NCBI GenBank assembly: GCA_965652295.1
Contig: CBFGTS010000018.1
Coordinates: 1-64,000 of the forward strand
From: an uncultured Haloferula sp.
GTDB lineage: Bacteria; Verrucomicrobiota; Verrucomicrobiia; Verrucomicrobiales; Akkermansiaceae
DNA length: 64,000 bases
Direction: 5' to 3'
The translations under genes were made by a program, and so were the position numbers. Below, piece after piece: positions 3 to 3,223 of this stretch (the stretch's first letter is position 1; every line of letters starts with the position of its first letter). The notes beneath the pieces were generated by a model that was not told the DNA's origin, did no database searches, and saw only the letters and a program-made list of their open reading frames with translations.

Positions 3-473
3 AAGGCGATCACCCCGAGAAGGCTCAATGACATCTATTCGCTACGCTGGAGCATTGAATAGCGCCGAAGGCCTGTAGGCGCTATGGACGTAGGGAGTGG
101 AGCGACCGAAGCCCGCAGGGCGAGCCGCCGGGAGGAGGCGGCGAGTCAAATCAACTTCCGGGCGCTCAAGCAATCCTGCCAGATCCATCGGGCTCTCACC
201 CACAAAAGCGACTACTTTCATCTGGAGGCACTCGTCCTCGCAGCCATGATCTACCAGGTTCTGACGCTGAAACTTCACAACGACCTCTGCCGGAAGCACG
301 GGGCTGGAGGCTGGATGAGCATCGAGAAGATCAGTGATTTTTTCTCCATTTATCTCCTGTCACTCGACCGGTTCGAGGAGCTCCGGGTGTTCGCACCAGA
401 TCTCCGTCACCTCAGATACGAACGAAGACGACGCGCAAACCACTGGCAGTCAATCATTCACTGCTTAGGTTGA
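3..473 (+). pseudogene. IS4-family DDE transposase C-terminal part, interrupted by a 90-nt insertion carrying an in-frame TAG
   Basis: KAITPRRLNDIYSLRWSIE (3-59), TAG at 60-62, then the same frame resumes INFRALKQSCQ... at 150. Removing 90 nt restores RWSIEINFRALK. Confidence 0.8.
59..148. mobile_element. 90-nt hairpin-rich miniature insertion of unknown family
   Basis: Stems ATAGCGCC/GGCGCTAT (59-66/78-85), GCCC-GCA-GGGC and GCCGCC-GGGAGGA-GGCGGC. Precise removal restores the transposase codons ATT GAA ATC. Boundary is ambiguous by 1-2 nt. Confidence 0.7.
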
Positions 474-2084: not shown

Positions 2085-3004
2085 TCAGCCGGTGCCGGCG
2101 AGGCGGTCGAGCGGGCTGGTGACGCCGAGGCCGTTGGCACCGACGGCGACGTGAAGGTAGATCTCGGTGGTGGTGATGTCCTCGTGGCCGAGGAGGTCCT
2201 GGATGGTGCGGAGGTCGGCTCCGTCCTCAAGCAGGTGGGTGGCGAAGGAGTGGCGCAGGGCGTGGCTGGTGACGCGTTTCTCGATGCCTGCGGATCTAGT
2301 GTGGTGATCACGAAATCCCGAGACGAAATGAGTGACTGAAAGTTTCTGAGAGTCAGCTCGCTTCGCTCGGCCGGTTTCGAAAGCGCGGCGCTTTTTCCCA
2401 TCTCTGCGTTGCTCCTCGGTCACGGATATTCATCCGCTCCCTCGTCGCGCCTCGATCTTGGAAAAAATCCCTCGCGCATTTCGCCCAGCTATTTCGTGAT
2501 CACCACACTAGCGGCGCGTTTGATGGCTTCGTTGTAAACGGGCCCGAGCATGTGGTGGCGGCGGCGGAGGTTGCATTCCGGATCGACGGAGGTTTGGTGG
2601 GCAGGAAAGAGCCAGAACCATTCGAAGGTTTCTCGGGCGCGGCTGAATTTCCGGGCGAGGGCGTTTGGCATGTGGACCCCTGCGAGGCCGGTTTCCCGGT
2701 CACCTTGCCAGACGGCTCTGGCGTGCTCGATCTGCGAGGCGAGCCGGGTGGCAAGGGACTTGGGCAGGACGGTGGAGCGGTCCTTGTCGCCTTTGCCCTG
2801 ACGGACGGTCAGGGTGCCCCGGCCGATGTCCACGTCCTGAATCCGTAACCGGACGAGTTCGGAGAGGCGCAGGCCGGCACCGTATTGGAGGCGTGCGGCG
2901 AGGGCGTAGCGCGGATCGGTGTGGGTGGTTTCGAGTTTCTCGAAGAGGCGGTGGGTTTCTTGTTTGGAGAGGACGACGGGGATGCGGGTGCCGGTTTTTT
3001 TGAG
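2085..3004 (-). pseudogene. intI: Integron integrase, 5'-truncated and MITE-interrupted
   Basis: RIPVVLS...YGAGLRLSE...GKGDKDR, the integron-specific insertion [37 protein letters not shown]...[13 protein letters not shown]. No start codon or N-terminal domain upstream of ~3004 (in-frame stop near 3087). Confidence 0.92.
2296..2511. mobile_element. MITE (212 bp net insertion) with 21-bp perfect terminal inverted repeats, CTAG at both ends (IS630-like)
   Basis: CTAGTGTGGTGATCACGAAAT (2296-2316) / ATTTCGTGATCACCACACTAG (2491-2511). Removal restores intI codons [13 protein letters not shown] in frame. Confidence 0.92.
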
Positions 3005-3028
3005 GCAGAGGGCCTGCGGGGGAAGGCG

Positions 3029-3223
3029 GTGCCGGTTTAAAAACCGGCGCTCCGTTTTGAAGACGCGGCGGGGGTGCGGGGTTGCCTACCTTTGAGGAAA
3101 GGAAGTTTGTGGGGTGGAGCGATGCCGAATTCATATTCGGCGCTCCTCTTGGAAATGCAGATGAAGAGGGTGCACAGGGTGGCGGGCTCGGGAGGTTGTG
3201 GGACGGGGGCGTCCCACCTCCTA
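3029..3223. repeat. REP-like palindromes beside the intI truncation point
   Basis: GTGCCGGTTTAAAAACCGGCGC (~3029-3050) and GTGGGACGGGGGCGTCCCAC (~3198-3217) hairpins in intergenic DNA. Confidence 0.45.

Follow-up and report, generated by a model that had tools for sequence, protein, structure and literature searches.

The window, by which we mean the whole 64,000-nucleotide stretch analyzed, belongs to contig C18 of an uncultured Haloferula sp. and opens inside an IS4 transposase gene, the contig itself starting within the insertion sequence (IS). Frame 3 translates as ...YSLRWSIE, meets a TAG stop at 60-62 and, after 29 further codons, continues as INFRALK, which bears out the same-frame interruption described by a sequence-only reading of this DNA. 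PMC2266710 gives Y(2)R(3)E(6)K as the hallmark of IS4. The host gene has this motif as well as the features of a DDE transposase: its intact homologues match DDE_Tnp_1, and one of them, 57% identical, scores above the cut-off for the NCBIfam IS4 transposase NF033592. A structured, gene-less unit has been inserted here and brings a stop codon into the YREK catalytic motif; the interrupted transposase copy is predicted to be dead. The features of the locus are as follows.

1-57, + strand: portion of the IS4 transposase upstream of the insert, with the Y and R of YREK; homologues match DDE_Tnp_1 and NF033592
56, + strand: marker base, T in the filled and C in the empty allele, synonymous (Ile); T also in the filled alleles L050 and L090
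58-149, + strand: mobile unit of 92 nt (most likely extent), AA at both ends, likely replacing two bases of the target (net gain 90)
59-85, + strand: hairpin 1, with an 8-bp stem, a GA/GKA internal loop and a 2-bp covarying tip; holds the in-frame TAG
86-110, + strand: conserved GGAC linker plus a variable middle region whose small hairpin is clear in many relatives and weak in this copy
111-121, + strand: mini-hairpin with a GCA triloop; a GNA triloop is found in 33 of 37 scored relatives
124-142, + strand: last hairpin, with compensatory change in 6 of 6 pairs
143-149, + strand: conserved 3' end GA(A/G)TCAA, which taken with 111-142 is similar to the 3' module of the E. coli lys tRNA-linked repeats
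150-473, + strand: remainder of the transposase gene, with the K of YREK and a stop at 471-473; identical to the empty allele
470-483, + strand: IS right end, beyond which the window and C4 copies diverge

The right end of the IS abuts a 42-base repeat that is also present at the end of the next small ORF and forms an inverted repeat; these stretches, at 482-523 and 1043-1162, look like integron cassette recombination sites. Homologous IS copies (C4, L134, L135 and L166) are also followed by one common sequence. Based on this shared downstream sequence and the cassette-site-like repeat, the IS4 may target such sites. Further along the window lies an integron integrase gene (2085-3085, - strand; TIGR02249, E of 1e-50 and 3e-28 for its two halves) that is interrupted at 2296-2511 by 216 bases bounded by terminal inverted repeats, with CTAG at each end; this insert is probably an ordinary MITE.

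An uninterrupted copy of the same IS segment is present in the same genome, at the start of contig C4 on the reverse strand, and reads YSLRWSIEINFRALK. Outside the insert the filled and empty alleles are identical at 390 of 391 bases, the sole difference being window position 56, where the filled allele has T and the empty allele C. The true empty allele is therefore ATC GAA ATC; the sequence-only reading had the 90-nucleotide removal right, but the ATT GAA ATC that it rebuilt is not the real allele. A 90-base skip from 57 to 148 was found in contigs of all 4 sequencing runs examined, from 3 studies, and the filled form in contigs of 2 runs from 2 studies, both among the studies with the empty form; the best-matching runs may be the source sample itself. 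No RNA run was among the matches listed. Each empty run-contig carries one other letter on the position-56 side, from which we infer C at 56. One of the filled run-contigs is an IS variant that diverges from 3 bases past the junction, and there are filled alleles of two close IS variants or more. Position 56 is T in all three filled IS4 alleles and also in some empty homologues (L135, L136), a distribution that fits the copying of one flanking base from a donor. An assembly artefact or a one-off event was rejected based on the empty copy in the genome, the filled and empty run-contigs, and the many further copies described below. The segment is also no regular part of intact transposases, the C4 copy and the empty homologues being uninterrupted. 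A search by blastn found no close second copy of the element in this genome. At L150 and L157, related IS4 genes carry a different short insert within a few codons of the same W..E motif.

The AA found at both junctions could in principle be a duplication, put at 1-2 nucleotides at most from the sequence alone, or could belong to the element. An ungapped empty homologue was obtained for 29 site groups, 20 of which reach 82% identity outside the junction; these homologues are not the actual pre-insertion alleles, and 3 of the 20 share one repeat class. At the position of the junction the 20 close empty homologues read AA in 9 cases and another dinucleotide in 11 (GG, AC, AT, GA, GC, TG or AG). 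Mismatches occur at 16 of 40 junction positions compared with 69 of 680 positions elsewhere, a background rate that is lowered by choosing the empties by identity outside the AA. In genome G013, all 5 distinct empty repeat units read GG at the place where 3 filled units carry AA at each end. The AA would, in two host genes, turn a Thr codon of the empty homologues into Ser, and the swapped bases change conserved host residues. Because the flanking AA is absent from 11 of the 20 close empties, the unit 58-149 has likely taken the place of two target bases; and because the AA so often differs from the empties, including the GG of G013, comparison of these sequences makes it most likely that the AA at both ends belongs to the element. 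The AA at both junctions thus stands, but most likely does not represent a true duplication; the target in the window by chance already read AA.

The element shows no terminal inverted repeat in the window, in agreement with the earlier statement that long ones are absent, and the ends of 33 aligned copies (AAAA.. and ..GARTCAA) are not inverted repeats of each other. When the 90-mer was folded alone the result was not significant (z of -1.76 with RNA and -1.83 with DNA parameters). The family gives a stronger signal. A covariance model, the check that had been proposed, was built from 33 copies. In the alignment of these copies compensatory pairing is strong: 97.1% of cells are paired, compared with 77% in shuffles and at most 53% in slid controls, both sides have changed in compensatory fashion in 12 of 18 pairs, and the covariation score is 0.53, compared with 0.14 for shuffled and no more than 0.10 for slid controls, the covariation tests being inflated by the relatedness of the copies. 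The structure has thus been kept by compensatory change. G-U pairs are present in it. The mean fold z was -2.09 with DNA parameters versus -1.40 with RNA parameters, and z fell below -2 in 33 of 58 copies with DNA parameters versus 16 of 58 with RNA parameters. GNA triloops are especially stable in DNA. Judged from these triloops and from the better z under DNA parameters, the family fold looks DNA-like.

Relatives of the element are numerous. A DNA search found them in 7 of 60 related genomes, and a scan with the 5'-hairpin pattern found at least 119 loci (about 170 estimated), whose titles name Verrucomicrobia in 110 cases, other groups in 6 and no group in 3. From 123 pattern matches listed, the 108 with a 3' end within 85 bases were kept, so that there are at least 108 further copies beyond the window, in 61 rough site groups (about 60 sites); of the 15 dropped, 3 were chance matches, 3 were cut by contig ends and 9 were variant, truncated or nested. 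The copies lie at many unrelated sites and in both orientations. Among the matches listed, lengths range from 71 to 119, mostly 84-90, in 109 copies, of which only 44 have a length that is a multiple of 3. The covariance model recognized at least 3 copies in this genome, among them two divergent relatives (C1:475823-475904 and C14:57444-57520), and matched at least 14 of 35 genomes of the genus and at least 9 of 151 of the phylum, the matching ones all belonging to one family. Most genomes have 1-5 copies; two small genomes of genus g3 reach high numbers, with at least 28 and at least 25. Rfam gave no relevant match for the element (one search matched Acido-Lenti-1 alone, beside L127), and blastn gave no match to the element in E. 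coli genomes. Intragenic multicopy sequences are reported from Geobacter genomes in PMC2996986. In the open literature searched, no description was found of the family, of a two-base replacement or of recurrence at the same codon; the supplementary repeat lists of PMC2996986 and PMC3733652 may bear on novelty.

Several related arrangements were encountered. Five loci in transposase remnants (L177, at G000:C14:57444-57520 on the - strand, and L190, L197, L314 and L317) have the same 3' modules with another 5' end. At C1:474975-476200 of this genome (L176, L320), an hsdM-like gene behind a tRNA-Ser gene contains at least 3 short structured inserts, one a divergent family member. At L104 and L131, a TIR element of about 180 bases with an 8-base duplication is inserted in the triloop hairpin of the element. 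The high-copy genomes G061 and G098 contain stacks of nested copies (L281, L286, L288, L290, L294, L303 and L304), inserted after GGGTG or GGAC of another copy.

Over the 61 site groups of the matches listed, the junction consensus is G/C-A-A-not G with nothing further out: position -1 is A in all 61, position -2 is G or C in 60, and positions -3 to -12 are unbiased; the second junction A is partly imposed by the 3'-end search pattern. Pfam named the host gene at 24 of 60 site groups scanned, as tyrosine integrases (6), IS91-type transposases (5, 2 of them weak matches), Y1 (2), IS4 (1), IS110 (1), RhuM (3), RHS (3) and others (3). The hosts include RAYT genes and, as read by eye, reverse transcriptase (RT) genes, and also non-mobile RhuM and CMAS genes; further copies are found inside REP-like hairpins, in runs of heptamers or nested in one another. 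Mobile genes and repeats make up most of the targets. At the 24 named host sites, 16 copies are in sense and 8 in antisense orientation. Copies inside RHS-repeat genes (L217, L222, L226) leave the reading frame open, with no stop. Guide-like pairing between element and flank was no better for an element's own flanks than for permuted ones (p of 0.66-0.91), and no difference was found in target fold at the junction; pairing at -2 is weakly in excess (p of 0.002 at one window size and 0.055 at another, uncorrected), which is not relied on.

The element sub-lineages follow the site and not the genome. The two nearest of the at least 108 relatives of the window element (83% identical) occupy the same IS4 codon in two other genomes. 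Their IS4 genes are 60% identical to that of the window downstream of the junction, with a pS of 0.68, so that synonymous sites are near saturation. The window allele is its own empty copy but for the insert, and is closer to the empty L134 and L166 (64-66%) than to the other filled alleles; the filled alleles are therefore not one IS lineage. The nearest neighbor lies at the same site for 52 of 64 elements in multi-member groups. Elements at the same site in different genomes are 86% identical (193 pairs), compared with 74% for different sites of the same genome (29 pairs) and a background of 71%, the kin pairs in this comparison not being independent. The site groups are rough, having been joined by single linkage with a 58% threshold across 60 bases; of these, group 2 is a mixture and group 0 includes a few other sites. 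In a weakly resolved element tree there are 7 label changes for 7 groups, compared with 27.3 after shuffling, and the IS4 element group has support of only 96/74. In the high-copy genomes, each element sub-lineage is confined to one repeat class. Elements at three different sites of RhuM genes are 90% identical to one another (5 pairs), which strict re-insertion at the same site does not explain.

The sequence-only reading had proposed a class of small structured elements that normally target tRNA T-arms. A class exists and so does a link to T-arms, but T-arms as the normal target are not supported. Three members (L205, L206, L219), located downstream of tRNA-Ser, -Gly and -Pro genes, interrupt the T-loop where a T-arm and tRNA 3' end have been duplicated. 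The tRNA 3' repeat behind these genes matches at 17 of 17 positions in L206 and 16 of 17 in L219, and spans 30 bases in L205. The TTCG of the tRNA reads TTTG before the element in L206, L219 and L224, the same C to T as at window position 56. None of the 109 pattern-scan copies has a T-arm context; a T-loop consensus target was accordingly rejected, with no T-arm-like junction in the 109 and a consensus of only G/C-AA-not G. In tRNA-linked repeats, 18-19 bases from the 3' end of the upstream tRNA or rRNA recur at the 3' end; the window copy has no such repeat, its contig being without a tRNA gene and its flank being transposase. According to PMC8144298, tRNA-linked repeats have been known since 1978 without an assigned function or origin, and those of E. 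coli rRNA operons are transcribed and processed. Like the E. coli repeat (rtT, RF00391), the element is without genes, and the 3' module (CCC-GNA-GGG, GAG, hairpin, GAGTCA) is common to both; in E. coli the module directly precedes the copy of the tRNA 3' end, the same layout as in L205, L206 and L219. The covariance model matched the E. coli lys and tyr repeats weakly (E of 0.09-0.8) and through the 3' module only, and RF00391 has no match at the window. Unlike the E. coli repeats, the window copy and all 109 pattern-scan copies lie outside a T-arm context, and the 5' hairpin differs. Free mobility and base replacement are not among the features that the consulted sections of PMC8144298 describe.

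The element was also compared with other known systems. Like MITEs (PMC3184786) it is small, non-autonomous and folded, with filled and empty sites; unlike them it has neither terminal inverted repeats nor, most likely, a true target duplication. The earlier judgement that it is not a standard MITE is upheld by the missing inverted repeats and by the 11 of 20 close empties without the flanking AA. It shares with REP/REPIN sequences (RAYT; the GTAG and CGTC REPs of Verrucomicrobia, PMC3733652) that it is short, hairpin-forming, non-autonomous, intragenic and clustered. Unlike these, it is 80-110 nucleotides long with four modules, its consensus ends lack a GTAG or CGTC tag, it mostly has 1-5 copies per genome, it usually breaks the reading frame, and REP hairpins are among its targets. 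The NTS/SRM repeats of Ssn (SsnA, GIY-YIG) are directional hairpin repeats of single-stranded DNA with a small nuclease acting on them (PMC11893778), and in this genome a small GIY-YIG-like ORF lies behind tRNA-Met; unlike the Ssn case, no such gene is found beside any copy examined. That ORF, of 81 amino acids, lies between tRNA-Met and partial tRNA copies (end of contig C3 and C9:1-420; L319), and is named from its motif, with no NCBIfam match.

No mobilizing enzyme was found beside the copies in 198 flanking frames, and none of these frames, from a scan of ORFs of 60 amino acids or more, matched GIY-YIG. The longer variants carrying an enzyme that had been suggested as worth seeking did not appear among the matches listed, the long cases being nested copies or TIR inserts. 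Presence of the element showed no pattern with PF01541 and PF01797 in 5 genomes or with PF13366, PF05635 and PF04480 in 14 genomes, most of the genomes being drafts, and none with the local GIY-YIG-like ORF in 35 + 5 genomes; relatives of this ORF are present in 1 of the 13 other genomes of the genus that bear the element, and in 0 of 4 high-copy genomes. Among these draft genomes, Y1_Tnp has no match in G061 or G090 and 6 in G098, and is present in two element-free genomes.

We consider it likely, with reasonable but not strong confidence, that the element is selfish and non-autonomous, that it takes the place of two bases of the target, and that, having entered a gene family, it inserts again at the corresponding position of related empty copies. 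The element would be handled as single-stranded DNA, and an enzyme acting in trans would make a nick or a 2-base gap in the target. Similarity between the flanks of donor and empty allele would guide re-insertion, copying along a base or so of flank such as T56, and rarer jumps would found new sites. Against this model, the searches brought up no mobilizing enzyme, no guide-like pairing of element and flank and no clear fold of the target, and 9 of the 20 close empties already have AA.

The site fidelity might instead be passive: the element would be of the same kind, but ordinary homologous recombination would have spread a single old insertion per site among IS variants, without a nick or drive at the empty allele. 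T56 would then be a tightly linked base requiring no special targeting, and the filled alleles on at least two close IS variants would be possible stepping stones. A null allele would nevertheless have to persist across hosts at synonymous saturation and in many gene families, including RhuM and CMAS, and no more than 3 bases from the junction the flanks already match the local IS variant; we regard this explanation as unlikely. More doubtful still is a PATE-like, non-autonomous derivative that would depend for its movement on an HUH transposase (Y1 or RAYT) working by single-strand peel-and-paste. The element resembles the IS200/IS605 PATEs (PMC7290912) in consisting of ends only, with hairpins at both ends, no TIR and no true duplication, and RAYT genes are among its hosts. 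IS200/IS605 elements, as that paper describes them, insert next to a fixed target of 4-5 bases, whereas here only G/C precedes the AA and two target bases are apparently lost. Y1_Tnp has no match in the draft genomes G061 (at least 28 copies) and G090 (10 copies), and no parent IS was found: none of the 15 matches without a near 3' end, from at least 119 of about 170 stretches, is an element with tnpA sharing the ends.

It had also been suggested that the unit is excised or spliced, switching the transposase on and off. The IS4 of L161 is intact save for the insert, distant IS4 lineages have the unit at one and the same codon, and filled and empty forms coexist, all of which a switch would accommodate. 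With 8 of 24 host sites antisense and with empty alleles lacking T56 (C at 56 in C4, and one other letter on that side in each empty run-contig), a switch or RNA intron is not supported, and the multiple-of-3 lengths in only 44 of 109 copies likewise speak against it. Many copies moreover lie in intergenic repeats or inside other copies, the swapped bases alter conserved host residues, and the filled L160 is full of stops. The contig evidence leaves room for rare excision, but we give the switch very little chance. Movement as an RNA copy by a reverse transcriptase in trans, which would make the element a tiny retro-element derived from tRNA-linked transcripts, is just as improbable, since the G-U pairs, the RT genes seen by eye among the hosts and the processed E. 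coli transcripts (PMC8144298) are set against GNA triloops, a better z with DNA parameters and no Rfam match.

The element is thus best placed among the tRNA-linked and REP-like repeats, as a variant whose junction is unusual and whose site fidelity is striking, and not as a switch. Beyond re-insertion at matching sites, we put forward tentatively a broader proposal that we rate as possible and somewhat short of even: the mobile core of tRNA-linked repeats might consist of undescribed, enzyme-less single-stranded DNA micro-elements that overwrite two bases, home codon for codon across lineages and parasitize transposases, integrases and retro-elements, with a mobilizing activity outside the GIY-YIG and HUH families tested. 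The family ties tRNA-linked repeats to free insertions through exact filled and empty pairs, a marker base and high-copy carriers, and these same materials make the mobility of tRNA-linked repeats directly testable. If the proposal is true, a 90-base gene-less unit coming back to a single codon in genes that share 60% identity would represent a new mode of homing, and the element would be a natural brake on other mobile elements.
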